Part shown: positions 4,015-50,260 of the stretch, piece by piece | Layout: every line of letters starts with the position of its first letter | Numbering within the stretch: position 1 is the stretch's first letter | IMG/VR virus record: IMGVR_UViG_3300023117_001979 | Direction: 5' to 3' (one strand) | Length of the DNA stretch: 64,000 nucleotides | DNA from: an uncultured virus (IMG/VR IMGVR_UViG_3300023117_001979) | Taxonomy: Duplodnaviria; Heunggongvirae; Uroviricota; Caudoviricetes | Made by a program: the position numbers and the translations under genes | The notes under the pieces: generated by a model | The model's input: only the letters and a program-made list of their open reading frames with translations | What the model was told of the DNA's origin: nothing | Databases searched by the model: none

Positions 4015-4766
4015 ATAGTGAAGAACGAATGACACAACTTATGGGACAGCTACCGCAGAACCGTGGTCTTGATTGGGACGCCGTTATGCCAGTAATTGAA
4101 TTTACTTTTAGTACACACCCTGACCCTGTAAAGGCTCGAAAGCAGAACATCAAAAAGGCGCTAAAGACGCTCAAACCTACTAAGCGAATCACTGGTTTCT
4201 TTGGCTATAAGTTTGCTAACGCACCTTTCCGTTGTGTAATTACTGGAGTGGATTGTCGCAATATGGACTATGGGGATTTGTTCAATCAATATTTCCGTGA
4301 CCCTAGTACAATGCAGCCACGACCCTTTAGGCCCTGGACCGGAGTCATGGATGGAAAAGGCCGTCAATTGAATGGGACATACTGCCCACAAGCCATGCAG
4401 CTCTATCATTTGCTTCAAGAATGGATTGAACAAGAAGAAGCTGAAAACGAGCGTGGCTTCTTCAAAGCTATGAAAAAGAAGGGGGTCAGCTTTGTACCAA
4501 TTAAGAAATCTCCAAAGAAACAAGAGTCGCCACTTATTGTAAAGTGGACTCCCGCATTCATTGAGGCTCAGCGTGATGGACTACCTATTATTCATTACAA
4601 GAACCCCATGACAGGTGAAAACGACATTACCATGATTGTTTTTGATAACCGATTACTAGCTAATACCATGCCTCAGAACACTACCTTGGGTAGTAACATG
4701 AGTGTTGAGCAATACTACAAGATGATTGAACAGGCAGCCCAGCAAGAAGAAAGTAACCCTCAATAA
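4011..4766 (+). CDS. hypothetical protein
   Basis: 251-aa ORF with ATGA overlap to the GTPase gene. Confidence 0.75.
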   Translation: MNSEERMTQLMGQLPQNRGLDWDAVMPVIEFTFSTHPDPVKARKQNIKKALKTLKPTKRITGFFGYKFANAPFRCVITGVDCRNMDYGDLFNQYFRDPSTMQPRPFRPWTGVMDGKGRQLNGTYCPQAMQLYHLLQEWIEQEEAENERGFFKAMKKKGVSFVPIKKSPKKQESPLIVKWTPAFIEAQRDGLPIIHYKNPMTGENDITMIVFDNRLLANTMPQNTTLGSNMSVEQYYKMIEQAAQQEESNPQ

Positions 4767-18215: not shown

Positions 18216-19139
18216 ATGGAAACCCCCCATTATAGGGAGAAAATCGCCATTATTGCTCGTACAAGCACCCTGAAGCAAGAGAAGGGGCTGGAATCTCAGC
18301 TTGTAGCACTCAACTATGCCCTCGAAGCCGGGCTTTACCAAGAATACGACCTAATCACCCCTCCACCGCTAGGAAAGGATGGAGAACGAAAAGGTACCTT
18401 TTGGGAAAGGTACCCTTCCATTGAGGACAGCGATTTGAAAACCATGTTTGGGCATGGGGGCCAAGCTTGGTGTGTTGAGGATGTGTCAGGTTCTGTTTTC
18501 CATGCTCACCCTATCTATCTTGCTTGTCTTGACTATTGTAGGGAGAACAATATTCCTAATATTCTGTTTGAGCACTCTGACCGCCACTCTCGTGACACTG
18601 AAATGATTCTATCAGAAATTCGTCAGCGAAAGGCGGAGGGCATTTACTTCCATTACCTAAACTTCGGAGGTATGGACTTGTCCACCCCGGCTGGAAGGAT
18701 GATGCTTACTATGGGGGCTGCCTTTGCAGAATACTACCGTAATGATTTGAAATCAAAAACGATTCGTGGTATGAAGAACCTTGAGGAAAAAGGCATTTGG
18801 GCGGGGTCTCCACCATATGGGCTACGAGTCATCACCCAAAAAGAGGACAAAGAAAACTATGGGAAGCTGCTTTACAACCCAGCAGAAATGCGTTTTATTC
18901 TGGCGCTCTATGACCGCATTCTTCAACGACCAGGCATTTCTTATCGCCAGTTATCAAAGTGGGCTAATGACGATGGGTGGCGGACACGACGAGGTAAAAA
19001 CTGGACAGCTATGGGAATTCGGCGCATTATGACTTTCATGCTACCCTGGAAAGAAAATGGGGAAGATGATGATAACTGCGGGAAGTACTTCCTAAAAGAA
19101 ATGAGGGAAAACCCAAACCTAGATGGAGATAACTCTTAA
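18216..19139 (+). CDS. serine recombinase (resolvase + recombinase domain)
   Basis: IIARTST..Q catalytic Ser motif, DRHSRD, GRMMLTMGAAFAEY, G.WAGSPPYG, TRRGKNWT. Confidence 0.9.
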   Translation: METPHYREKIAIIARTSTLKQEKGLESQLVALNYALEAGLYQEYDLITPPPLGKDGERKGTFWERYPSIEDSDLKTMFGHGGQAWCVEDVSGSVFHAHPIYLACLDYCRENNIPNILFEHSDRHSRDTEMILSEIRQRKAEGIYFHYLNFGGMDLSTPAGRMMLTMGAAFAEYYRNDLKSKTIRGMKNLEEKGIWAGSPPYGLRVITQKEDKENYGKLLYNPAEMRFILALYDRILQRPGISYRQLSKWANDDGWRTRRGKNWTAMGIRRIMTFMLPWKENGEDDDNCGKYFLKEMRENPNLDGDNS

Positions 19140-21055: not shown

Positions 21056-21916
21056 ATGAGCGAATGTTGGAAGGTCCCTTTTTGGGAATACCAAGTGATG
21101 GCTGCGGGCCTCAAAGAAAGCGAGTATTCTGCTCACTGCTTTAACATAGAAGATGGTATGGTGATTTTCCGTACCAAAAGAGAGCGAAAGTTGCTAGAAG
21201 ATGTAATTTCATGGGCCAACGATGGTGTAATTCCTGAAAGGGAGGCTACGACCGGCGAGCCCAAGAAGAAAGTCGCAAAGGTGGGCGAAAAAACTGGTCC
21301 AAGCATTGGCCAATTGATTCTCAAGAACCCCCATATCATTACCAACCTTCGTGACAAAAACGGCGAATATCTCCAAGGGCTTTGTCCTTCTTGTGCTACG
21401 GTCAACAAAGACTCCGATGAAAACCACTTTTGGATTCATTCTGACTATGGTGGCTATGGTTGTGTTTCTGACTGTGAAACTAGCGATGTGACACGCGCCG
21501 TAGTGAAAATTATGTCTGATGCAGGCATCCTTGAATCTGACACATATCAAAAGCCAAGTAATGCTGAATTACTTGCGGTTCGGCCTATCGGCAAAGACCC
21601 ATTGTCAAAAGAGGCAGCGAACAATTCTGTAAAGAGCTTCACTAAGCAAGCAAAGCTAATTTTAGACCACATCCATAGTGCCAAAGATGGCGTGACTGAT
21701 GAAGAAGGTCAAGATACGCTGAATATCCCTGGAAATTCTTATCGCCCTGCCCGACTTTCGTTAGAAAGGCTTGGTTATATCACTCGTTCCGGAGAAACAC
21801 GCCCAACCCATTCAGGCTCAAGAGCCGCCGTTTGGATAGCAAAAATGTCACTAGAACAGGCTGAATTAGAATTTGAAATTAGGAATGAAGAAATAGTAGT
21901 GGAGGCATCTTCGTGA
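21056..21916 (+). CDS. zinc-ribbon (primase ZBD-like) plus winged-helix protein
   Basis: CPSC...GC...C and a C-terminal TDEE...YRPARLSLERLGYI.SGETRPT.SG.A.VW wHTH. Confidence 0.55.
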   Translation: MSECWKVPFWEYQVMAAGLKESEYSAHCFNIEDGMVIFRTKRERKLLEDVISWANDGVIPEREATTGEPKKKVAKVGEKTGPSIGQLILKNPHIITNLRDKNGEYLQGLCPSCATVNKDSDENHFWIHSDYGGYGCVSDCETSDVTRAVVKIMSDAGILESDTYQKPSNAELLAVRPIGKDPLSKEAANNSVKSFTKQAKLILDHIHSAKDGVTDEEGQDTLNIPGNSYRPARLSLERLGYITRSGETRPTHSGSRAAVWIAKMSLEQAELEFEIRNEEIVVEASS

Positions 21917-21992
21917 ACATGCCGACTGATGAATGCCAGTGTGAAAACCCTGGACCTCGTCATTCGGGATGCCACCCGACCAGCTGCGCTAG

Positions 21993-22397
21993 GTGCGGGG
22001 GTATCATCGAATGAGTGCTGTATTCCGACTAATGGACACCGTAATTGGGCGAAAGTGTGAGATTGAAGAATGCGTATGCGTTGCTGAGGAAAACGACCCC
22101 CGCTGCTATGACCATAGTGTTATGCGACTCATCGAGCCTTTGTTTGAGCACTTTGACGAACAATGTAGCTTTGGTGGAATAAATTGTACTGGAACCGCTA
22201 CCCACATGAATGAGCATGAGGTTAGCATGTGTGAAAACTGCTACAATGAATGGACCCGTTACCGGCGCATTCAGCGAGGTCGCCGCTATGAAGGTCGCAC
22301 TATCGGCCAGCTTGTTGGACCCCATAACGAATTGATAATGGAAGCACTGTGGACCCCAGTAGTGACATTAGTAGAAGAAGGAGATGAAACAGAATGA
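21993..22397 (+). CDS. Cys-rich hypothetical protein
   Basis: Multiple C/H ligands; overlaps the polB start. Confidence 0.55.
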   Translation: MRGYHRMSAVFRLMDTVIGRKCEIEECVCVAEENDPRCYDHSVMRLIEPLFEHFDEQCSFGGINCTGTATHMNEHEVSMCENCYNEWTRYRRIQRGRRYEGRTIGQLVGPHNELIMEALWTPVVTLVEEGDETE

Positions 22398-31057: not shown

Positions 31058-31537
31058 TCACCAGTCTTCATCATTATCCCAGTCCCAGTCATCGTCGTCG
31101 TCGTCATCATCGTCGTCGTCATCGCTTTCTTCTTCGTCATCATCGAGACCGGCAAGAAGTCCATCTAAGTCATCGTCGTCATCGTCGTCGTCATCTGACA
31201 AAATGATAGCCTTTGCTTTCTTTGGCTTGTCTTCGCCAAGCTCTTCCCAATCAGGAATATTGTCATAGTCAAAGTCATCTTTCTCAGGAATCTTAAGCTC
31301 AGGACGCTTTTTCTTACCTTTAGACATAGCGGCTTGAACCATAGATGGCTTAGATTCTTCTCCATCCTCTTCATCTTCGGGCTCATCGAACTCGATGGCA
31401 CTTAGATTGAGGTCACTATTCTTTTTTAGAGCAAGAGTTGGTTCAACCCAGCTTTCTAGCTTTTTCATCGCTGATTCGTCATTCATAGCTTCAACTTCAA
31501 TAGTCAAGTAGTAGGTGAAAACCTGCTTTTCTGCCAT
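31058..31537 (-). CDS. protein with very acidic (poly-Asp) C-terminal tail
   Basis: 159 aa, two long Asp runs near the C-terminus. Confidence 0.7.
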   Translation of the reverse strand: MAEKQVFTYYLTIEVEAMNDESAMKKLESWVEPTLALKKNSDLNLSAIEFDEPEDEEDGEESKPSMVQAAMSKGKKKRPELKIPEKDDFDYDNIPDWEELGEDKPKKAKAIILSDDDDDDDDDLDGLLAGLDDDEEESDDDDDDDDDDDDWDWDNDEDW

Positions 31538-31584
31538 GAGTATGTATCAGCTTCATTCTGACCTTAAACCTAAGTATTGGTTTA

Positions 31585-31788
31585 ATGACTATGTATACTT
31601 TCACAAGCCTTATATGCACCGGGAAGATGCACATAGTAATGGGCACCGATGATGCCATGAGTGCTATTAGGGTTCGTAAGTACGATATTGACCGCCTAAA
31701 GCATTTTAAAATTAATAACGAGTCTATTTGGGAGACCTTGGCGAGGATTCTCAATGAATATCATCATAGCCAAGTTAACAAGGAGTAA
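31585..31788 (+). CDS. ribbon-helix-helix DNA-binding protein (start probably internal, MGTDD/MSAIR)
   Basis: SAIRVRKYDIDRLKHFK...ESIWETLARIL resembles archaeal RHH proteins. Confidence 0.6.
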   Translation: MTMYTFTSLICTGKMHIVMGTDDAMSAIRVRKYDIDRLKHFKINNESIWETLARILNEYHHSQVNKE

Positions 31789-31793
31789 TAGAA

Positions 31794-32105
31794 ATGGCAA
31801 AATTTGCGCGAACAGTGTCAAAAATCGAACAATGCTTTAGAGTTTATGAAGACTCCCTGGAAGTGGATGTTCTTTCCTTCCATCAAATTCGTGATTGGTA
31901 TAACGAGCAAACCAAGGATGGAATTACTTCTGCTCGCCTAATTAACCTCCTTCGCAAGCGTCCTCAGTTTGTTTGGCAACATACCGAGCGTAAAATTGGC
32001 TCAAATGAAACATTGACCTTTTGGTCTATGAACAAAGAAGTCAAGCTGCCTAACCCTGCAGATGGTTGGGTGGTTATTGAGCAGGCAGCTCCGCTATCGT
32101 GCTAG
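31794..32105 (+). CDS. putative winged-helix protein
   Basis: LSFHQIRDWYN..TK.G.TS.RLINLLRK.PQF. Confidence 0.6.
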   Translation: MAKFARTVSKIEQCFRVYEDSLEVDVLSFHQIRDWYNEQTKDGITSARLINLLRKRPQFVWQHTERKIGSNETLTFWSMNKEVKLPNPADGWVVIEQAAPLSC

Positions 32106-32135
32106 TAGTACTACCCTAAGAAGCGCTACAATATG
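32105..32135 (+). promoter_or_regulatory. bipartite element copy 1: GTAGTACTAC-N8-GCGCTACAATATG
   Basis: Identical architecture in 4 intergenic copies. Confidence 0.8.
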
Positions 32136-32180
32136 AAGCGAGGGAACTGCCCTCCTTCAAATATATTAGGAGGTAAAAAC

Positions 32181-32357
32181 ATGAATGAAGATTTTGTATT
32201 CGAAGGTGAAACTTACATTATCGTAGACAAAGTTCCGGAAAATGTTCAGCAAATGTGCCGTTATAGCACAGGAAGCGTGGACAACTATTTCATCGGAAAA
32301 AAGATGATTTTCTGGAAGTCTGCCGGTTGGAAGTTTTACACCACAACGAACCTGTGA
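32181..32357 (+). CDS. small hypothetical protein (MNEDF...)
   Basis: AGGAGGT RBS before ATG 32181. Confidence 0.6.
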   Translation: MNEDFVFEGETYIIVDKVPENVQQMCRYSTGSVDNYFIGKKMIFWKSAGWKFYTTTNL

Positions 32358-32439
32358 AATCTAACTCATCAGTTTGAACGCCAGACTAGCCACAAGGAGG
32401 GAGAAAAACCGGCTAGCAAAAGTGCGGTAAGCACAGGAT

Positions 32440-32682
32440 GTGAAGAAAATATCACAAAATGAAAAAACAAACGAAGAAGAGCTAGTTCCCTGTAAGGGGA
32501 TTATCTACATGTCAGTACAAGGCGGAAAGGATTTCTACGACCCATGCCCCCACAACAATAAGGTCCCAGTAGGGACTGAAAACGGGGGCGGAGAAACCTG
32601 TATCGAATGCAGGAAAGAAAACTCCCGTAGCTACATGAGCCGAACCCACATATCTGGCGGACGCCCAGTAGCACCTATTTGA
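32440..32682 (+). CDS. small Cys-containing hypothetical protein
   Basis: 80-aa ORF, C...C...CIEC. Confidence 0.5.
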   Translation: MKKISQNEKTNEEELVPCKGIIYMSVQGGKDFYDPCPHNNKVPVGTENGGGETCIECRKENSRSYMSRTHISGGRPVAPI

Positions 32683-32702
32683 AGGCACAAGAGCTCTTCT
32701 TT

Positions 32703-32779
32703 GTACCACATCCAGGTCACTGACCTGTCCAACCCGCCCCTGTGCGCCAAGGCTCGCAGGGGTGGCCAAGTGCGGTAAG
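32703..32779 (+). ncRNA. conserved three-way-junction RNA motif, copy A
   Basis: Homologous to 36780-36857, with a 10-bp stem of different sequence but the same pairing. Confidence 0.7.
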
Positions 32780-32796
32780 CACAAGCAAATGTCAAG

Positions 32797-32827
32797 GTAG
32801 TACTACCTTGGCGAGCGCTACAATATG
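32797..32827 (+). promoter_or_regulatory. bipartite element copy 2
   Basis: GTAGTACTAC cttggcga GCGCTACAATATG. Confidence 0.8.
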
Positions 32828-33230
32828 GAGCGAGGAGAAGACCTCGTATTCAATTAGGTGAAAAACTTGGATAGAACCCATGCTGTCAAGGAGGTTCTAG
32901 AAGGGATGTACGGAAAGCAGCGAGCATAACCTCGTCGTGAAACCGGTAGGAGGGCTTGTACCTCTGAGGTTGAATTTCCCGCATTCATATAGAATCTTCA
33001 AAGCATCAGTTTAGGGGCTCTTGGGTGAAATAGACCTGGAGCGACCCGTGACCCCGGTCAGAGACTATGCGGTTCAACAAACTCAGAATGTGCCACTCAG
33101 CGTAAAACCTGAGTCTGCACAGCCTACGGGCCGAGAAATAGACAAGCGAGTAGCCACGAAGCGTGGGACAAACAGTAGCTAGTTAGCCAATAGGCGATAT
33201 ACAGTTACTGATTGTGAATAGTAAACAACC

Positions 33231-33608
33231 CCCAACGGTGTTCGAGCCGACGGGGTTGGGATGGACTTAGAGTGGATTGCGCCGTAGATTCGGCTTAAAC
33301 TCAATGAAAATCCCGTTACAGAAACAACCAAAGCTGCCCTGAATTCAGTGCAGATGGTTGGAACTTTCCTTGGATGGAAGTACAATGTATGAATGCCGTC
33401 GCCTAAGTGCAGGGCCGCCACTTTCAATGGCCTGCTCAGAACGGATATGATGCTGGAATTGGGGTGAAATCCCAGTTATGAATGCATCTGTGCATGTATG
33501 CCTGACCATGGGGAACGATAGGAGAGGATGTTCACGCAACCTCTCCTATTAGCGAGGTAAAAATCGCCCAAGTCAAAAAAGTTAGCCCAACGGTGTTCGA
33601 GCCGACGG
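33231..33608 (+). repeat. 23-nt direct repeat CCCAACGGTGTTCGAGCCGACGG (33231-33253, 33586-33608)
   Basis: Exact match read from the sequence. Confidence 0.9.
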
Positions 33609-34250
33609 CTGCTTTGGCCTCTGCAACCGGTGAAGCGGACCGGAGGCCCCAAGACTTGGAATTAGGCTGTGGTAGCCAATCTTACATGTGAAAGCTGAGT
33701 CCGAGTAACCAACGGAACAATGAAGCTTTCAAGCAAGAAGCCGAATGCTTGCATTCGGCCTTCACATATCAGGAGGAAACCAAAAATTCTCCTGTATATA
33801 TGGGCACCAGGTGTATTCCTGGTGTACCGGGGGTCAGGTACATGTTTACCATGTCCTGGCTCCCAAGACCATATCAGTGAGTGGTGTAACTGATTGGAAG
33901 GTTGTTGGACAACCTGTATGGTATGCTAGCTTATGCTAGAAGTGCCTCCAACTAGAAGATTAAGTGCATTACGCACACACACAATTTACCACACTCGCCC
34001 GGACTCGATTTATCGAGTCTTTACATTATCTTGAGACTAAAATAGGGCTTAAGCCCGGCGAACCTATCACCGTAAGGATGGTGGGTAAAGTCGCACAGTA
34101 ATTTATTAGCTCTCTTCGGAGAGAAACAGAAATCCAGCTACCAGCCTCACGGCTGAGACTAATATACGCCCACATAAAGGGACCTCACCGGATAGAGCCG
34201 AGGGTCCTGTGGTGCGCGGAAGTTGGATGATAATGTAACTACAAAATATA

Positions 34251-34284
34251 CCAGGGTAGCGTTAAAACTGCCCTGGTTTTTTTT
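34251..34284 (+). terminator. hairpin + T8 terminator-like element
   Basis: CCAGGGTAG-cgttaaaa-CTGCCCTGG then TTTTTTTT. Confidence 0.8.
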
Positions 34285-34292
34285 GTATCAGT

Positions 34293-34301
34293 ATAAGCGT
34301 G
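34293..34301 (+). promoter_or_regulatory. ATAAGCGTG gene-start motif (first of about 27 ATAAG(C)GTG copies to 63946)
   Basis: Recurrent motif at gene starts in the right half of the window. Confidence 0.8.
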
Positions 34302-34526
34302 GACACTGGATTATTCAGGACCAATGTAGGTTTGACCTACTTCCGTCAAGCAAAGATGGAAAAACAACTTACAGACGAGCAGGTGCTTGAGCTGTACACA
34401 TCGATACTTCGTATCGAAGCCAACGCAATCCGCCAAATGGAAGAGATTGCTGGCACTGCCGACCAATGGCGGAAAGACCAGGCTGAGGCTAGTCATGCCT
34501 TGGCAAAACAACTCCGTGACCTCTAG
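34299..34526 (+). CDS. small coiled-coil hypothetical protein
   Basis: GTG start within the ATAAGCGTG motif. Confidence 0.6.
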   Translation: MDTGLFRTNVGLTYFRQAKMEKQLTDEQVLELYTSILRIEANAIRQMEEIAGTADQWRKDQAEASHALAKQLRDL

Positions 34527-34546
34527 TCGCGTGAATAAGTGTATCA

Positions 34547-36763
34547 GTGGAAGGTACTGTTGAGTACCGGAAGCAAAAGGTGAAAAAAATGAAAACCGAA
34601 ACGAAAACCGAAATGAAAACAACTTTGTTTGTTTTGGTCGCCCTGTTTCTGTCCATTGGCTTTGTGCTGATGGGCAGCTTGGGTGACTCAACAATCGAAG
34701 ACCGAACCGCTGACAACGACGAGCAAGTGCGTATCGTGAGTCCCCTCGCTATGCACTGGAGTCGATGGTCCGTCCGCAAGAAAGACGGAAACCAGCAAAA
34801 GAAGGAAGCATGGAGAACGGCCCGCTGCGGCCAATCCAAAACCCTTCTCCACTGGCGACAAGTCATGCTCCCAAGCAAGAACCGTCGCCGTGCTGGTACA
34901 GACCAACAGCTCAACGCTCAGCGTGTGCTGCGTCTTCAATCACCTTTCGATAGCGCTAAGAGGCTCGCTCAAGAGCTTCGTGTTGGCGTCATCGAAAACA
35001 ACGAAGGAATCCAGGAAGTTCTCAACCGAGAAGTCCGAGTGATTCTTGAGACAGAGACACGAGCAATTCGAGACCCGGCGATTCGCCTGGACTACCTGCT
35101 CCATGTCTTCACAACCTACGGGGCTGCGTTAGGTATGGTTTGCCGAGACAAAGGAGACCAAGAAACCCTGACGATTTTGCCTCACCACATCCGGAACGCC
35201 ATCACGAATGGCTGGCAGAACATGCCAAAAGCCGGTAATGCGGAACTGATTGTTAAGAAGTTCAAAAAGGGCCTGGTTACGCCAGGCCTTTACAGCTCTC
35301 TTTACTTGAGAAAGGGCACCCCAGCTCAAATTCTCATTGATAAGATGGTTGACGAACAACTTGACCACTACATTCAGAACAACTCCGTTTCCGAAGAAGA
35401 CCTTCGTGCGCAAGCAAATAAGGCTCTAAAGGAAATGGTTAGCATTCACACCAAGTTTATGAAAGGAGAAGTGGACATTAATTTGTTCCATGAATCCATT
35501 CCTGAGCAATTTAGTGCCCAAGTCTCGGCTTTCCGAGAGAAGGGTAACAACATGAATGCACTCAAAGAGGCAGGTATTGACAGTGAAAAACTTGCTCCGT
35601 ATGCGGAAGAGCTCAAAGCTCTTCAAGCGGAGTTTGTTACTTCATACCTGTCTTGGAAAAGGAGCTCAACCAAGAGCCGCGACGAGCACCACAAGGAGCT
35701 GCGCGCAACTCTTGAAGAGTCACATCTGAGCGAAATGCGTGAAAAGTACCATTCTTGGGAAATTCGCGTCACTCGCAAAGAAGGAAAGAAAGTCTATGTC
35801 ACCATGGAGTGGCATTTGACTCCCATGACACCAACCAAGTCAAGGGGCAAGAAAGGCGCTGAAGAGGTTGTTCCAAACAACCACATTGGTGCCCGATACC
35901 TTTTGGGTCCATCTAATGGAGTCAAAATGCCTCTCGATGTGAAAAGGGGTTATGTGCGCGGTGCAAGCAAGATTGAGAAGCACGGCGGACACCCTTACAC
36001 TGGTGACACCACATCCATGCAACTGATTCGCGCATCTTCCCACAAGGGTGAAGATGGTTACTTCGGGGTGCTTAAAAACCTCCCTCGTAACAAAGTGTTT
36101 CAGATTCAAGCACGGCGTGAAAACTTCAAACAGCTTTACACTATGATGAATGTTGTACTGGGCGCATGCCCGTTCAACCCTTCATGGAAACTTGCTGGCT
36201 TGTATTCAAACCCGAAGCTCGTTGAATCAAACGGGCAAGCGTTTTCTCCTAACCTCACCTCGTTTGAAGTGGGTACGAAGGACAAAAAATCGGGCAAGAA
36301 ATCAGGCCGAAAGAAGCTTGGACCAAATGCAAAGAAGAACCGTAACGCGGTTCGGAAGGCAGCCGAGATTCTTGACCAGCAAGATGAGCTCAATATGGCA
36401 GAAGAGGGATTAATCGACCTTTATCGACCCAACACAGACCTTGCCGAAATTGAAGCTAACCACAACAAGGAATTGCTTCGACTCTGGGAACTCCTTTACA
36501 AGGAAACTGTTACCAAGTTGAGGACACGACTGAAAGCCCAAGGCCTAACCGTCCGCGGCAAGAAAGACGAACTTGTTAAGCGTTTGATGGATGAGTTTGA
36601 GAAGGAACACCACCGTAACCAAGCTCAACGCTGGCTCGACGAAATGGACGCAAAGCACGGTGTCATAATCGAAGACGAAAATGATGATAGCAACGACGAC
36701 AACAACGACGACAGCATCATCTATGACGACGACGATGTGTGGCCTGACCGCTCCGACAACTGA
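34547..36763 (+). CDS. large basic protein with hydrophobic N-terminus and C-terminal SAP domain (start probably ATG 34589)
   Basis: TVTKLRTRLKAQGLTVRGKKDELVKRL is a SAP motif; AGGTGA RBS at 34578; N-terminal TLFVLVALFLSIGFVLM. Confidence 0.75.
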   Translation: MEGTVEYRKQKVKKMKTETKTEMKTTLFVLVALFLSIGFVLMGSLGDSTIEDRTADNDEQVRIVSPLAMHWSRWSVRKKDGNQQKKEAWRTARCGQSKTLLHWRQVMLPSKNRRRAGTDQQLNAQRVLRLQSPFDSAKRLAQELRVGVIENNEGIQEVLNREVRVILETETRAIRDPAIRLDYLLHVFTTYGAALGMVCRDKGDQETLTILPHHIRNAITNGWQNMPKAGNAELIVKKFKKGLVTPGLYSSLYLRKGTPAQILIDKMVDEQLDHYIQNNSVSEEDLRAQANKALKEMVSIHTKFMKGEVDINLFHESIPEQFSAQVSAFREKGNNMNALKEAGIDSEKLAPYAEELKALQAEFVTSYLSWKRSSTKSRDEHHKELRATLEESHLSEMREKYHSWEIRVTRKEGKKVYVTMEWHLTPMTPTKSRGKKGAEEVVPNNHIGARYLLGPSNGVKMPLDVKRGYVRGASKIEKHGGHPYTGDTTSMQLIRASSHKGEDGYFGVLKNLPRNKVFQIQARRENFKQLYTMMNVVLGACPFNPSWKLAGLYSNPKLVESNGQAFSPNLTSFEVGTKDKKSGKKSGRKKLGPNAKKNRNAVRKAAEILDQQDELNMAEEGLIDLYRPNTDLAEIEANHNKELLRLWELLYKETVTKLRTRLKAQGLTVRGKKDELVKRLMDEFEKEHHRNQAQRWLDEMDAKHGVIIEDENDDSNDDNNDDSIIYDDDDVWPDRSDN

Positions 36764-36779
36764 GTTCTGAACGACACAA

Positions 36780-36857
36780 GCACAACTCCCAGCTCACTGA
36801 GCTGTACAACGGGAGCAGGGGCGCCAAGGCTCCCCTGTTCCCCCCTGTGTAGGTAAG
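36780..36857 (+). ncRNA. conserved three-way-junction RNA motif, copy B
   Basis: Homologous to 32703-32779. Confidence 0.7.
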
Positions 36858-36963
36858 TCTCCAAGCCTGCCTAGGTCTTCGACCTGAGGCGAATACATTG
36901 ACCACTAGGTTTCCCCCCTTTGTTGGTCTTTGCTTGGCTTGTCATAAGTGAAATTGTATTAGC

Positions 36964-38721
36964 ATGAAACGAAAATTGTGCCTCTTGATTTTGAGCCTGC
37001 TACTGACCACCCCCTACATTACTGGAGGTGAGAATATTAATGGCTTCGCTGACGACACTGAAATCCCCAATGCGCACACGATGATGAAAGTCCGTGGACG
37101 CAAGAAGTGGAAGACTGTTACTGATGTTGCAAAACAGAAGAAAGCAGTCAACGCAGCTGCGCAACAAGCTTACCTTTCTTCACCCGAAGGCAAGGCTGAG
37201 CTTGCGGCTGCTTCCAAAGGAATTTCTCAGCGCAAGAAGCGCCTTATCTTGAAAGGCGACATTCCGTTTGCCCCGTCTATTGATGACCAACCTACATATT
37301 GGAAAGTCAACTCTTCCCTTCCTCGGAGGATTGATAGCTTCCAAAGTAACATTAGTTGGTTTGCGGGGTTCATTCGGAAAACACTGACAAATGCTGGGCT
37401 CAGTCGACGCCAAGCAAAGAAACTTGTCAAAGAGTATTTCCCAAGCAACCGAGCGATTCGCAAGGAAGCTGGGGAAACTAACAAAACTGCTGACGCACTC
37501 CGATACGAATATACGGTTCGTCAGATAGTACTTCACCGATACTTGAGGAATCATGTCAATGACTGGCGTGTTTCTCAAGTCAAATCTTTTAGAGAACAGC
37601 ACACAAAGGAGTGTGCAAAACTCGAACAACAATTGGTGATGATGGGAGGCTGGGAGTCTCCTGAAGATGTTCGCAAAAGCTATGACCATCGATTAAAGTC
37701 TGCTCTCACCCCAATGGTGAAGTATCAGGCTGGCGTGATGAAAGGCCTACAATTGGAAATGAAACAAATCCGAGAGTGGGCTGAAGTCAAAAATTATGCG
37801 ACCAAAGAAAATGTCCAATTATTGGGCAAAGTCCTAAAACAGTTAGAGGCAATACGCCTTGACCTCGATGTACTGCTTGAAAACGCAGTTAAGAAGAATA
37901 TGAAACTGACTAGGGCACAGGTACTTGCAGCGGCCAATAAAAAGGCAGCTGAAATCGAGCAACTTTGGAAGTCTCGCATTTCTGAAAAAAGAGCATCCAT
38001 CTTGCAAAAGCGAGATGAATACCTTGCGTCTGAAGACTACCGTACTCGAACTACTCTTCACTGGAAGATTAAGGAACACAAGTACACTATGAACGATTTT
38101 GATGATTTCATCAAACAATCACTGCGGATTCCCTATGATATGCTTTGCAATCTAGAGGAAAGCACACCGTGGACAAATTTTGAATCAAGCATAAACTGGA
38201 TAAAAGGTGAGCATGTTCTCACTGGCTTATTTACCAGGGCAGCTGAGTTTGACCTTGTCCACCACCCTGTACTCCTAAATAATGGAGTTACACCTTGGAG
38301 TCTCCGAGAGGCTCTAAGCATCAATGGTACATTCAACCAAAGCCAGCGGTTTATCTCTATTCCGCGTAGTACGGCTGAATTGGAAAAGATGACTTACCCC
38401 GAACTCACCTCATACGCGAAAGAGCGAGGAATCAAAACATGGGTTCGAGAATGGGTAGACGACAAAAGAACGGTTGTGCCAATGCCAGCTGACCAACTGG
38501 TCAGGGCTTGCGCTACGACTTTACACCTCGACTCTCCTAGGGACGGCCAAGTCCTTTACGAGCTAGGTATTCACTACAACGAAGTCTTTTCTGAATCTCA
38601 AATTTTCAAAAACAAGTGGGCTGGAGATGTTTACTCTTTCACTGCCCCTTCGGTTGAAGCCCATGCAAAGACAGTTATGGCTGAGAAGGTTGACCACTTA
38701 CTCAGCGACTTTGACTTCTGA
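36964..38721 (+). CDS. large basic helical protein with signal-like N-terminus and Rho-N/HEH-like motif
   Basis: MKRKLCLLILSLLL...; ELEKMTYPELTSYAKERGIK. Confidence 0.75.
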   Translation: MKRKLCLLILSLLLTTPYITGGENINGFADDTEIPNAHTMMKVRGRKKWKTVTDVAKQKKAVNAAAQQAYLSSPEGKAELAAASKGISQRKKRLILKGDIPFAPSIDDQPTYWKVNSSLPRRIDSFQSNISWFAGFIRKTLTNAGLSRRQAKKLVKEYFPSNRAIRKEAGETNKTADALRYEYTVRQIVLHRYLRNHVNDWRVSQVKSFREQHTKECAKLEQQLVMMGGWESPEDVRKSYDHRLKSALTPMVKYQAGVMKGLQLEMKQIREWAEVKNYATKENVQLLGKVLKQLEAIRLDLDVLLENAVKKNMKLTRAQVLAAANKKAAEIEQLWKSRISEKRASILQKRDEYLASEDYRTRTTLHWKIKEHKYTMNDFDDFIKQSLRIPYDMLCNLEESTPWTNFESSINWIKGEHVLTGLFTRAAEFDLVHHPVLLNNGVTPWSLREALSINGTFNQSQRFISIPRSTAELEKMTYPELTSYAKERGIKTWVREWVDDKRTVVPMPADQLVRACATTLHLDSPRDGQVLYELGIHYNEVFSESQIFKNKWAGDVYSFTAPSVEAHAKTVMAEKVDHLLSDFDF

Positions 38722-45379: not shown

Positions 45380-45394
45380 TATATAAGTGTGAAA

Positions 45395-45425
45395 GTAGTA
45401 CTACTTTCCCAAGCGCTACAATATG
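45395..45425 (+). promoter_or_regulatory. bipartite element copy 3
   Basis: GTAGTACTAC tttcccaa GCGCTACAATATG. Confidence 0.8.
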
Positions 45426-45427
45426 AG

Positions 45428-45920
45428 CCAGGGAGTGCATACTGCTCAGTATGTCCCCGTGCATTTATGCATATGGCCTGAGTAACGCTAGTGAAACATT
45501 AGTGATTAGTGATAAGTGAATAGGATAGAACAACTTGGACCGTGGCGGTAAACTGTCACCCATTCAAGTTATCCTTGAAATTGCCGCCTTTGCGAACCCC
45601 GATGCATTGGCGAAAGAGTAGGGCATTAGTGAATCAGGTTCTCAACCTGTGAAACTAATGAATTTCGAGACAAGTAAAATACGCTTTCCGAAGCGGTTTT
45701 GCCTGTTTTAAGGACTTGAAGTAACCACGACTCTAGCCGAGTTGACTCCGGGTTACTTCTCGTAGGCTCTCCTGCCCTAACGGGTAGAGAGATGGAGAAA
45801 TTTCAGCAAATAGCGACCTTGTTGCAACGAGTTAGCTGTTTGTACTGTGAAAACACTCTAATTTGGGCTTCACAGCCGATTTTCGAGTGTAAAACATGAA
45901 ATTAGCGTGGTGAACCAGAA
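45428..45920 (+). ncRNA. putative ~0.5 kb structured RNA 2a
   Basis: No ORF in the track; serial hairpins between element copies 3 and 4. Confidence 0.6.
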
Positions 45921-45928
45921 ATGTAGTA

Positions 45929-45959
45929 GTAGTACTACTTTGCTGGGCGCTACAACATG
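45929..45959 (+). promoter_or_regulatory. bipartite element copy 4
   Basis: GTAGTACTAC tttgctgg GCGCTACAACATG. Confidence 0.8.
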
Positions 45960-46884
45960 AACCGGGGGAGGAGTAATATCCAAACTCGGTTTTTTATTAG
46001 GCGTGGACAATGTGTGAAGGAGCAAGTACTTCGGGAAAGTGAATTCACACTAAGCTGACTCTGAGAGTCGGTAACGCTGATGATGCCCGACCTCCGTGCC
46101 TTCATGGCCTGTAACCGGAGGCGGGACTTCGACACATCGGGATGGCAGAAATACTGTGAGAGAGCAGTTAGATTGTCGCATGAGTAAGCAGCCGTCGCGC
46201 TGCAAGAGACTGTCAACTGGCAGTTTCGTAGACTGGAGACAGTTGCTCTAAGGGTGGAAGCAGTCAGAAGCTTCCTTGAGGGTAAACCATAATCCCTCTC
46301 CCTGTCCCGATAGTTAGACACGGTAAAGGCGGCGGTTTCGAAGACCAAAGCCTAGTGTTTGAAGGTGACTGAATGTGGGCAACTGAACTGCCCTAAAGTA
46401 CTGAGATGAAGCGGCTGGAGCAATCCGAAGCAAGGCAAGGAGTGGGTGACCACTTGAGCCTACAACAAATCTCAGGTCGGATGCAAGAAATTGTACTTTC
46501 TCATCATCCGTGGGAGTGCCAATGGCCCCCCTTCACCTTTCTAGTGTAGTAAACAAGCCGACCAAGATTAATTTTGGTTTCGGTGGATAATAGAAGCACG
46601 GCAATAAGGGCTAGTACCCGGAGTCGTGAACGACAGGAAAAGAGGAGAATACTCCTCCCTGGGACTACACACAAAGTGTGGAATTCTGATTCATTAAGCA
46701 GCATACGCAAGCTGTGAAGAAAGAATGAAACATAGGAATAGCTTTCCATTAACGATTGTATGCTGGGCGCAGCGCATGATTGGGATAGTGAAAATTGCGG
46801 ATTTATTCGTGATTCTTCCTACTTGCTACATTCCCCCCTGGGAATGAGCTAATAAGTCTTGAAATTGTAACGGAGGTCTGAAAA

Positions 46885-46968
46885 ATGGCCTCAAAACCGT
46901 TGAAAGACCTTTTCGATGAGCAGTCTGAATTATATGACAGCTTATTCGGAGATGACGCCAAGTTGTAA
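46885..46968 (+). CDS. 27-aa small ORF MASKPLKDLFDEQSELYDSLFGDDAKL
   Basis: GGAGGT RBS 7 nt upstream; manual translation. Confidence 0.45.
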   Translation: MASKPLKDLFDEQSELYDSLFGDDAKL

Positions 46969-46997
46969 AAATGACTTTGGCAATTCAAAAAATTCCT

Positions 46998-47033
46998 GGC
47001 GCATGTCTTACGGCATGCGCCTAAATTTTTTTT
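46998..47033 (+). terminator. hairpin + T tract
   Basis: GGCGCATGTC-ttac-GGCATGCGCC then taaaTTTTTTTT. Confidence 0.65.
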
Positions 47034-47057
47034 CTTATACTTGTACACAGGTCATTA

Positions 47058-47277
47058 CCTACGACCTCAATAAGTGGCACCACTGCGTCCCACCTGTGTT
47101 CAAGTGATGAAGTTGGGGTCGTAGGGAAGAGGGCAACAAAACCCCTGGACAGCTTTCCTGGGCGAGAATGAAATCGGGTCACCTAACCTGGTGGAGTTCT
47201 GACCTTAATGGATTACAAGACTTGTCTTGTTCCGGGACGCACGAGGCTTCACAACCTCGTGGGCTCTTGAACGCAGG
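47058..47277 (+). ncRNA. multiply pseudoknotted or switchable RNA element upstream of the DUF1257-like gene
   Basis: Three mutually crossing helices of 13, 8 and 12 bp. Confidence 0.6.
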
Positions 47278-47579
47278 GGTGTCACACCCAGTGTGGAAAC
47301 TGCCGTTTAGGCGGTTAAAACATTACAGACTACCTATTTGGTAGCTGTAAATTAATAATAAGATGCCTTTAGGCCGTGACCGAAGGTGTAGCAGGTACTC
47401 AGTTCTAATACAGGTACCTTTTATTTCATATTAAACATTAATATGGGGTAAAGAAGGTGGTTTAATATTGCCAAGGCTTTTTAGCCGAGGAGAACATGAA
47501 GCTATTGAGGGTGCAAACCCGTAACGAAAGTCAGATAGCAGGGTGGGATAGGCCACCTCCCATTAGGAACGGTAATAAT

Positions 47580-48128: not shown

Positions 48129-48340
48129 TGGGTAAAATCAAAGTTATTGTAACTGAAGAAGGCGAAATTAAGATTGAAGCTAAAGAAGGGTTTGAAGGGA
48201 AGTCGTGCCAAGAGGCAATTGACTTCGTTATGCAAAACCTTCCAACTGGCTTTGCCTTTGAAGAGTTGGAGACTATCCGACATGGTAACTTTTCAGTAGT
48301 TGCAGAAAACCCAAAACAGGTTTACTTGCAAAAAGACTGA
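48128..48340 (+). CDS. DUF2997-like protein
   Basis: IKVIVTEEGEIKIEAKEGFEGKSCQEA. Confidence 0.75.
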   Translation: MGKIKVIVTEEGEIKIEAKEGFEGKSCQEAIDFVMQNLPTGFAFEELETIRHGNFSVVAENPKQVYLQKD

Positions 48341-48344
48341 ACCA

Positions 48345-50240
48345 ATAAGGAACGGTAAATATCCCTTGAGGGGGCGTCAGCCCCCAATGAAAAGAAAAAT
48401 TCTTTTCAGCCGCTGCGAGGAACACTTTCGTGTTCCTAGCCGCGTGATGAAAAGAATGACACATAATGCTAATAATGTCCTATGACAAAATATGCCGCGC
48501 TAAGGAACACGCAAGTGTTCCTCGCAGCGGCTGAAAAGTAGAAAACGAAACACAAGTATCGACACAGCGGTCGACAAAACTTCGACGAAGTTTACCCGAC
48601 GGTAATAGATACACTGTTTCTGAAATTATGATTGCTTTGATGCTTGAGGAGCTGAAGATGGAGATAAAAAGGTGCCAATCAGGTACCTGACACATATCAT
48701 CTCAAGTCTAGACCATAATATCCGCGGCTACCAATCTGAAAGATGGTGACCAAGATATTTGGAAATCTTTCCCAGAAGATTCCTGGACGGTACTGAGATT
48801 CCAAACTCTGGCTCTGATTAACTTTGAGACATGTCAAATGTCAGAATCCAATAATGCAAGCACTATAGCTTGCCATGGATGAATACGATACGGCTGGATT
48901 GTGGTGAGTAACCACAGTAAAATTTTGCCAGGGCACACACTCTGTGTTCTGTCTTGCCCAGTGGACCACAAGAAAGATGATTTCATGATGGCCAAGTTAA
49001 TCGAAACAAAAGGTCAACTTGCACCTGGTAATTGCCCGGTGTATGGAGAGAGCTCGCGAGGTTGCCACTGCGCAACTAAGCACTAAGAGTTACGACCGGC
49101 CTCTTCCTGAAGAGACAACTACTAGTATCAAAAAATCGTGTTACTGAAAAGCTATTCGAATAAAGAAAGACCACAGTGTCGCGACATTGCAGGTTAGTGC
49201 CACCATGGCACGACTACTGAACACCAATGTCTACAGAGACCTATTGGTCGTCGAAATGAGCCGAGCATCTATCTTGACATATGTCAGGATAGAGAACATT
49301 GAGTTCTAGTTTTGGTAAACCAGCTGGTAATACAAGCTGGAAATACAAAATAAAGATTCGAATAAAGAAATTCACTAAGTCTACTTGCGGAACCAGCGCT
49401 ATGGACAAGATGGTAACAGCAAGATGATTGCAAATAGCCAGTACTTGTAACCATAACACATGTCACGAGTTCTGAATTCACAATCGTGAAGATATTACTC
49501 AACTACAGTAGCTGCACCGCATAATCGATGGATAAATCAAAACATTAGCAAAATACATCTTAACTCCCGTTTTGGCACATGCCAAAACACTGGTAAAGAC
49601 TATTTGAGAGTGAGGGGGACCTTGGTCTATGAACCAAAGGTACCCCGAAACCGGTGTGAAAAAGACTCTGTCACTAATGCCTGCATGGCACGGTACAGAA
49701 CCTTTCGTTATCGAACCAGAGAAGAACTTCGGTTCCTCTAGTACCAACGCGGATTAGTGGTCCGCCTCTCACAGGGGCACCATTACGCAACTGAAATTCT
49801 AATCGATTAACGAAATAAAATCAGGTAACTAAACTTCCTAGAATTCTAAAGATACGACGAGTACTTGCAAAGAATGTAAACAGAGTTTACACACAGCAAT
49901 GTCGTCACAATAATTTAGAGCCCTGAGGACGAGGTTACTTAAATCCACCAAATTTCCCAACTGGAGTTGCTCCAGTAAACTGAGGAGCTAATAGATGCTC
50001 CAAATGTCCATACAAGGATATTCAGAAATTACTCTCGCGCGCTGAGGCGCCACTAAGAAAACTTGCAACACTGCAGCAGCGGCGTTGCAACTTCTTTGCC
50101 ACACATGGTCAGGTAGCTTGTACAAAGCATGCTGCCATGTAATAGATATACGACATGTGTCACGCATGGCGGGTCGATTTCACCCTTTCCTGTCCGGGAG
50201 GGTTGCCAATCGCCCGTGGTACCGATTCCGCCAGTTTGAA
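48345..50240 (+). ncRNA. putative ~1.9 kb hairpin-dense non-coding region 3
   Basis: Only short ORFs (82 aa or less) in any frame; many short palindromic hairpins. Confidence 0.55.
48402..48538. repeat. 26-bp perfect inverted repeat
   Basis: CTTTTCAGCCGCTGCGAGGAACACTT (48402-48427) / AAGTGTTCCTCGCAGCGGCTGAAAAG (48513-48538). Confidence 0.95.
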
Positions 50241-50260
50241 AATTGTATTAGGTAGGATAA

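Follow-up and report, generated by a model that had tools for sequence, protein, structure and literature searches.

What does an RNA structure do that occurs twice in one mobile genome, each time shortly after the stop codon of a different gene? Here we address this question for a stretch of DNA of 64,000 nucleotides (nt), hereafter the window, from the uncultured virus record IMGVR_UViG_3300023117_001979. An initial annotation of this DNA, made from the sequence alone, had described a duplicated element on the + strand, each copy just after a stop codon, and had read it as a three-way junction and a novel cis-acting RNA. Copy A follows a small gene, p80, and copy B a larger gene, p738. We find that the element is a tandem of two hairpins, in which the first hairpin (H1) and the following linker are near-invariant, and the second hairpin (H2) joins a lower stem of free sequence to a conserved C(YAAG)G cap. 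This double-hairpin structure is real, unclassified and far beyond chance.

A tandem of two hairpins

The sequences of both copies read exactly as first annotated (Table 1). The H1 sequences, CAGGUC-ACU-GACCUG (A) and CAGCUC-ACU-GAGCUG (B), confirm the reported compensatory G-C/C-G swap. In both copies H2 consists of a lower stem of 10 base pairs (bp) and an apex made of a G-C pair, a C·U mismatch, a G-C pair, a C-G pair and the loop CAAG, with GCGCCAAGGCUC as the common apex sequence. The 10-bp stems are unrelated in sequence yet paired in both copies, and the 6-nt linker, the 3-nt loop of H1 and the tip of H2 are kept, all as described before. On the 3′ side of H2 follow CCAAGUGCGG in copy A and CCCCCUGUGU in copy B; copy B then continues with GUGUAGGUAAG, a degenerate half of the 16-mer AAGTGCGGTAAGCACA, which also recurs at 32420-32435, as the annotation had observed.

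The fold is exceptional for this DNA. By stability, both copies rank within the top three 60-nt windows of the + strand, at -33.7 and -35.3 kcal/mol against a background mean of -10.8 kcal/mol (standard deviation 4.4). On the + strand each copy has a fold z-score of -4.0, compared with -1.6 and -0.5 on the - strand. The three G-U pairs (two in A, one in B) would become A-C mismatches on the opposite strand, which agrees with the earlier statement that such pairs favour + strand RNA. The 21-nt pattern of H1 plus linker occurs twice in the 64 kb, where 0.01 occurrences are expected.

The junction did not survive this comparison. It depended on a 4-bp helix closing the two hairpins, in which none of the four pairs is changed on both sides: two pairs are invariant and two carry one-sided changes only. 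The closing helix is missing from one of the homologues described below (L008 copy B). In copy A its 3′ strand doubles as the first arm of a separate, recurring GUGC-GGUAA-GCAC hairpin (AAGUGC-GGUAA-GCACA), and the minimum-energy fold prefers that hairpin. A TGA stop does precede the copies, as was noted, by 20 nt in A and 16 nt in B; however, TGA ends 32 of the 59 open reading frames (ORFs) of at least 100 amino acids (aa) in the window and is thus the commonest stop, so that its presence carries no weight.

Homologues keep the pairing

Relatives of the locus are few. A search of 5.8 billion proteins found only five other clusters related to p738, and metagenome contigs provided 17 related loci (numbered with the prefix L) besides the contig of the window itself. 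A covariance-model search, proposed with the initial annotation, was run over 214,101 bases of these relatives. The model built from window copies A and B (R1) matches locus L008 at two places, one after its p80 homologue and syntenic to copy A (452-534, E 2e-10), the other after its p738 homologue and syntenic to copy B (4216-4278, E 0.22), and both matched sequences keep the H1 and H2 pairing. A model rebuilt with three sequences (R2) lifts the second match to E 0.0014. Locus L016 holds a sequence identical to this L008 copy B match, which leaves four distinct members of the element. No full match was obtained in any further locus, in agreement with a loop-word scan and a scan for the H1 pattern, and R2 weakly aligns modules of L004 (E 1e-4) and L005 (E 0.036) to the same layout.

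When each core is folded independently, the same two hairpins form in all four members, with 75 pairs in total, of which 4 are G-U. The linker is single-stranded, CA-rich and 6-7 nt long throughout, and the H2 loops are CAAG, CAAG, UAAG and CAAG, each closed by C-G. These loops fit the stable YNMG-type tetraloop, Y-N-(A/C)-G closed by C-G. Over the three best distinct sequences, 98.6% of 69 cells are paired; shuffles give 80% and none of 500 reaches the observed value, and sliding the partners drops pairing to 33-52%, although all pair-count figures are upper bounds, given the tiny sample and an alignment that had been fitted to the structure. In the same three sequences both sides have changed in 9 of the 10 pairs of the H2 lower stem with pairing kept, whereas five of the six H1 pairs are invariant and the sixth swaps from G-C to C-G. 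Compared two by two, the four members differ on both sides in 4 to 8 of the first nine H2 pairs, and these positions still pair. The difference in invariant pairs between H1 (5/6) and the H2 lower stem (1/10; Fisher, p ~0.008) points to a sequence-specific constraint, as if something reads H1 and the linker.

No known family accounts for this structure. The annotation had anticipated that a known Rfam family might turn up; Rfam 15 (4227 models) gives 0 matches at or above gathering thresholds over the whole window, and at E<=10 the interval 31500-37500 contains one match, to an unrelated small nucleolar RNA outside the element. Scanned alone, each copy resembles microRNA precursors and similar generic hairpins at 9-19 bits, against thresholds of 40-100. 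The idea of a novel cis-acting RNA is therefore upheld by the absence of an Rfam family, by compensatory changes among orthologues and paralogues and by the transcribed 3′ untranslated regions (UTRs) considered below, without the three-way-junction architecture. The motif pattern, the p738 protein and a 35-mer of a neighbouring conserved RNA have no match in a viral contig collection, and the p738 alignment has none in a collection of genome contigs. The motif is also absent from G001, the only genome holding a relative, an absence that shows little in about 1.2 Mb of unstated completeness.

The element is transcribed in 3′ UTRs

Nine RNA runs and many DNA runs contain the stretch, and four metatranscriptome runs were examined as assembled contigs, which give no strand, true ends or levels. 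RNA contigs of these four runs cover both copies. Copy B is bridged by contigs in all four and copy A in two; bridging contigs show that the uncut form is present, not that a cut form is absent. The distance from the stop codon to H1 is 26-30 nt in the window copies and 40 nt in L008 copy B.

For p738, RNA contigs begin at 34557-34567 with an adapter-tagged fragment end at 34567, which makes the ATG at 34590 the likely start codon. In two runs contigs stop within a T-rich tract, and these stops are the apparent 3′ end of the p738 messenger RNA (mRNA), 76-78 nt past copy B. The p738 RNA would thus run from 34557/34567 to 36933/36935, placing copy B inside the 3′ UTR. For p80, a low-depth contig of one run spans 32438-32779, from two bases before its GTG to the end of copy A. 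In two runs contig depth rises from 13-44 in the p80 region to 473-536 from 32925 onward. This jump between 32779 and 32925 places copy A at a unit boundary with a strong start in between.

A promoter-like element, GTAGTACTAC-N7-RGCGCTACAAYATG, lies in this gap. Four + strand copies of it occur in the window, and it is conserved in most relatives; contig depth increases 12- to 35-fold across the copy next to copy A. RNA contigs of two runs also break around the first 16-mer hairpin (…32411/32416, then 32438/32462…), where breaks at low depth (3-44), like uncovered parts, are weak hints only.

Several identities for a structure at this position were tried and rejected. A scan for bacterial-type intrinsic terminators lists neither copy on the + strand. 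An archaeal oligo-T termination site is not part of the element, since the T-rich tract lies outside it and none follows copy A. Read-through or SECIS-like recoding fits poorly: the frames stay open in the window but read the shared nucleotides in different frames, and at L008 copy B the frame ends 10 codons on, short of the element. Two apparent pairing partners also fell away: GUUGGACA, in the conserved RNA, is complementary by eye to the copy A linker but does not covary with copy B or L008, and CCUUGGCG, which lies in the promoter-like element and complements the H2 tip, occurs also in L002, which has no motif.

Copy A and p80 share a cassette

The p80 gene and copy A form a 348-nt unit between exact 16-nt direct repeats (32420 and 32768). 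L003 provides the empty site, where its alignments to the two flanks share 21 nt around a single 16-mer (L003 5737-5750). L008 carries the cassette at 87% nt identity to the window, while its p738 is only 39% identical. L002, which is 82-93% identical to L008 at the nt level around the sites, carries a different gene at the p80 position and neither copy of the element, with a plain hairpin at the position of L008 copy B. L004 has yet another small gene, flanked by ~50-nt repeats that end in the 16-mer (36 and 578). The GUGC-GGUAA-GCAC stem formed by the 16-mer differs but pairs in L010/L015 (GUAUUG…CAGUAC) and L019. Judging from these alignments, swappable cassettes of small genes are joined at the 16-nt hairpin AAGTGCGGTAAGCACA.

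In all ten loci compared, the 115 nt that precede the promoter-like element are folded, with a z-score of -2.0 or lower in eight. They contain one to three hairpins of differing sequence, and the hairpin with the GGUAA loop comes next in most loci. Since diverse folded modules occupy this site, the motif would be one sequence family within a class of multi-hairpin end-modules, which are predicted to close small gene units upstream of a strong promoter.

The p80 protein itself has invariant residues C18, C36-P-H38 and C54-x2-C57, in a zinc-ribbon-like arrangement. It is very rare, with two other clusters among the 5.8 billion proteins, and matches nothing in Pfam or PHROG; its AlphaFold model (mean pLDDT 48) is too poor for a fold search.

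Table 1 Features of the locus. Positions refer to the window.
Feature	Position	Strand	Remarks
16-nt direct repeat, left	32420..32435	+	AAGTGCGGTAAGCACA, hairpin GUGC-GGUAA-GCAC; left bound of the p80 + copy A cassette
p80	32440..32682	+	80-aa ORFan (orphan ORF); copy A in 3′ UTR
Copy A	32703..32779	+	As first delimited; sequence and fold
Copy A core	H1 32713-32727, linker 32728-32733, H2 32734-32765	+	H1 6 bp, loop ACU; linker UCCAAC
16-nt direct repeat, right	32768..32783	+	Overlaps the 3′ end of copy A as first delimited
Promoter-like element	32797..32835	+	18-nt palindrome CAAGGTAGTACTACCTTG reaching back to 32793, then GCGCTACAATATG
Promoter-like copies	32105-32143, 32797-32835, 45395-45425, 45929-45959	+	
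ORF-free highly expressed RNA locus	32840..34285	+	Core 33873-34292; terminator-like hairpin and T8 34250-34285
p738	34547..36763	+	Hypervariable protein, SAP domain; copy B in 3′ UTR
Copy B	36780..36857	+	Core: H1 36790-36804, linker 36805-36810 (UACAAC), H2 36811-36842
T-rich tract	36910..36939	+	RNA contigs of two runs stop at 36933, 36935

Possible functions

From the functions first listed for the element, a stability or processing signal or a protein-binding site remain as live options. Our preference, which we hold tentatively, is for a cis-acting boundary or stability module of the 3′ UTR that acts in the p80 and p738 mRNAs together with a sequence-specific partner. This reading builds on the structure, covariation, transcription, 3′-UTR position and cassette context described above, from which we infer a stabilising or insulating action and a binding partner. 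The + strand RNA would fold into the near-invariant short hairpin H1, the CA-rich linker of 6-7 nt and the long, very stable H2, whose lower stem would need pairing alone and whose tip would be capped by the C(YAAG)G tetraloop. Such a module would mark the end of a protein-coding unit immediately upstream of the next promoter. As a 3′-end boundary it could block 3′-to-5′ decay, and perhaps read-through, and the upstream message would keep a defined, stable tail. H1, the linker and the H2 tip would together form the surface read by a sequence-specific factor. Plastid 3′ stem-loops and bacterial REP-type elements are 3′-UTR hairpins that define and protect the mature 3′ end without terminating transcription. 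The present element resembles these inverted-repeat stabilisers in being a stable 3′-UTR hairpin structure with stems free in sequence while pairing is kept, but differs in that one hairpin, the linker and the tip of the other hairpin are conserved in sequence, in its restriction to two genes and in its archaeal-type setting.

Several observations weigh against a boundary or stability module. Copy B is not the 3′-most structure of its UTR, as another hairpin and the T-rich end follow 20-90 nt further, so that a simple role as last barrier does not fit this copy. A U-run after H2 is absent in both copies. The window also follows no general rule of stable hairpins after stops: across a span of 120 nt from the stop, the best 50-nt fold averages -14.8 kcal/mol for window ORFs and -13.5 kcal/mol in coding controls (p = 0.051), which would make the function specific to a few genes. 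In Mimivirus, by contrast, mRNA 3′ ends form at hairpins after stop codons according to a "hairpin rule"; the two share a large DNA element with its own multisubunit RNA polymerase and hairpins after stop codons, but here there is no genome-wide rule and the apparent RNA end lies well past the element. The RNA evidence, moreover, consists of assembled contigs, with the limits on strand, ends and levels given above, and the structural evidence comes from only four distinct members and a pair-count alignment fitted to the structure.

What the partner might be leads to a reading that we consider unlikely, in which the small zinc-ribbon-like protein p80 would bind a site made of H1, the linker and the H2 tip, both in the 3′ UTR of its own mRNA and in that of p738, as a travelling post-transcriptional regulon. 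Protein and motif occur together: p80 and both copies are present in the window and in L008, and L002, for all its closeness to L008, has neither p80 nor the copies. The block of p80 and copy A has stayed far more similar between window and L008 than the p738 proteins, and the sequence-specific constraint on H1, the conserved Cys/His ligands and the rarity of p80 point the same way. However, the co-occurrence comes down to essentially one contrast, L008 against L002, between mosaic loci with other cassette differences, and p80 has no Pfam or PHROG match and an unusable structural model. Two-hairpin regulatory RNAs in two copies per genome are familiar from phages, as HK022 put and lambda nut (boxA/boxB), which act in cis on the transcript or the polymerase and sit just downstream of promoters, at operon starts. 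The element shares with them tandem hairpins of ~60-70 nt, duplication in one mobile genome and covarying stems, and the adjoining GUGC-GGUAA-GCAC hairpin is similar to small pentaloop hairpins such as boxB. Unlike put and nut, the element stands after stop codons, at the ends of units, and there is neither sequence similarity nor an Rfam match. A broader version of the regulon reading, unlikely in our estimate, takes the element and p80 as a tiny mobile post-transcriptional control cassette, situated in an integron-like array of small gene cassettes directly upstream of an abundant, structured and ultra-conserved RNA of about 420-560 nt, in a plasmid-like archaeal element with its own RNA polymerase. 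If this were true, a zinc-ribbon protein would recognise the invariant hairpin-linker-tetraloop surface on two messages, its own and the one encoding a hypervariable SAP-domain protein.

The remaining explanations call for cleavage or for action as DNA. Quite unlikely, in our view, is an endonucleolytic processing site at which an RNase of the host or of the element itself would cut, for example, the linker or the adjoining GGUAA hairpin, separating the cistrons and leaving mature 3′ ends, comparable with cleavage at the histone mRNA stem-loop by a CPSF73-type enzyme. The single-stranded, CA-rich linker of all four members would suit such a cut, as would the contig breaks around the first 16-mer in two runs and the contig that ends at 32779, inside the second 16-mer. 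Yet contigs bridge both copies, the breaks occur at depths where they may be coverage noise, and no adapter-supported fragment end falls inside either copy. Very unlikely is a folded or palindromic DNA site for cassette exchange, like the attC sites of integrons, which are folded single strands of DNA with paired inverse core sites and require the integron integrase. The likeness is one of position and constraint, since attC too lies at the 3′ end of a swappable gene cassette and conserves structure over sequence. The insertion of p80 and copy A between 16-nt repeats, the empty site in L003, the other cassette of L004 with its longer repeats, the swapping of the copy B segment between close relatives and a serine recombinase gene in the window all suit this idea. 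But the joints of the cassettes fall within the 16-mer and outside H1 and H2; the G-U pairs and the asymmetry of folding favour one RNA strand; no joined form was seen among the contigs examined and no integron integrase was seen; and by eye the RYYYAAC-like copy A linker has no partner of the GTTRRRY type found in the attC consensus.

A self-cleaving ribozyme, proposed in the initial annotation, proves the least likely of the functions listed there, and a new class of small self-cleaving ribozyme is extremely improbable. The element is compact and conserved, includes conserved unpaired nucleotides, and resembles the hammerhead, twister, twister-sister, pistol, hatchet and HDV-like ribozymes in size and in its non-coding location in a mobile genome. 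No Rfam model of a known ribozyme class matches at E<=10, even with each copy scanned alone, a result that by its nature would also be obtained for a new class. Against catalysis stands the lack of a multi-helix junction or pseudoknot supported by covariation, the closing helix having no covarying pair and being absent from one member. The conserved single-stranded part comprises only 6-7 nt, the H2 tip looks like a plain stable tetraloop cap, and assembled RNA passes uncut through both copies.

By itself the double hairpin, with four members, is a modest find, but its context could open the expression biology of a widespread companion of marine archaea. The locus yields RNA signals that can be tested. 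Besides the structured 3′-UTR module, with its clear recognition surface, they comprise a hairpin that recurs as punctuation, the repeated promoter-like element, a site of cassette insertion and a very abundant conserved RNA.

A conserved, abundant RNA downstream of copy A

The ~1.5 kb between copy A and p738 contain no ORF in the standard code, and none of the codes with TGA as W, TAG as Q or TAA as Q opens 32780-34290. Within this region a core of ~420 nt is 84-91% identical in ten full-length relatives, against 26-39% for the flanking protein. Compensatory changes mark 14 of the 110 pairs in its consensus fold, including two long-range helices. Contig depth over this RNA is 295-1350, compared with 59-215 for p738 in the same runs. 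Adapter-tagged fragment ends at 33680, 34227 and 34239 suggest an abundant species of ~550 nt that ends before the terminator hairpin. The conserved RNA seems a more remarkable object of this interval than the double hairpin.

Its identity was pursued among known RNAs. There is no credible match in Rfam. A likeness to conserved regions of RNase P was dropped, as no RNase P model matched at E<=10, and a box C/D-like GUGAUGA…CUGA at the start of the conserved RNA was rejected as a kink-turn, as the GA is not kept in the window or L002. A search of the available literature found no paper pairing "magrovirus" with "non-coding" or "noncoding".

The segment 32840-33870 is the variable 5′ part of this highly expressed locus and is reduced to only about 165 nt in L019. 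In the window the exact 23-nt repeat CCCAACGGTGTTCGAGCCGACGG occurs here twice, at 33231 and at 33586, with a different stem closing each copy, and the most stable hairpin pair of the segment lies at 33805-33864. Tandem Repeats Finder found nothing in 32700-34400, and the ORF-free region, blasted against the window, gave no paralogue.

The carrier element

The window encodes a thermosome, of which the best solved relatives are archaeal, and an unsplit RNA polymerase large subunit of 1668 aa nearest to archaeal Rpo1N/A′. Its family-B DNA polymerase (PolB) is nearest to enzymes of haloarchaeal tailed viruses, and a serine recombinase (18216-19139), RNase H and GmrSD are encoded as well. PMC5434244 ascribes DNA polymerase, thermosome, resolvase and RNA polymerase A to "magrovirus group D", reports no morphogenetic genes for this group and calls its nature undetermined. 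PMC11706807 and PMC10160649 describe group D as lacking the major capsid protein (MCP), enriched in cellular fractions and possibly plasmid-like. By its gene content the window fits this description, as an uncultivated mobile element associated with marine group II archaea. The syntenic contig L019, from a bin labelled "MAG: Methanobacteriota archaeon", has PolB and RpoA proteins 93% and 70% identical to those of the window at the aa level. RNase H is 82% identical between the two. GenBank phages gave no DNA match to window 32000-37000.

Other observations

Downstream of the p738 stop, seven loci (L002, L003, L004, L006, L008, L012 and L013) carry another conserved 3′-UTR module, GAGGCUACCAUGCCCUAGAAGCAUGUGAAGUUUUAAC, which is absent from the window. 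It is enclosed by locus-variable, apparently complementary arms and contains a Shine-Dalgarno-like AGGAGG and an AUG-CCC-UAG mini-frame. Identity to the corresponding proteins of L019 is 31% for p738 and 26% for the next protein (36964-38721, 585 aa); both are hypervariable and have hydrophobic N-termini.

At 31075-31204, which codes for an acidic GAC/GAT repeat tract on the - strand, RNA contigs show loose ends and one 62-nt skip, probably as repeat-driven assembly variants. Further along, the ~2.1 kb at 45380-47496 have no + strand ORF above 63 aa but two promoter-like copies and stable hairpins at 47236-47349, and may be another non-coding RNA locus. The ORF-poor region 48129-50260 holds two similar long hairpins with opposite arm order (48400-48459 and 48475-48534) and more at 50045-50223. 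A very stable intergenic structure (-32.7 kcal/mol in 60 nt) lies at 21913-22017, between two + strand genes.

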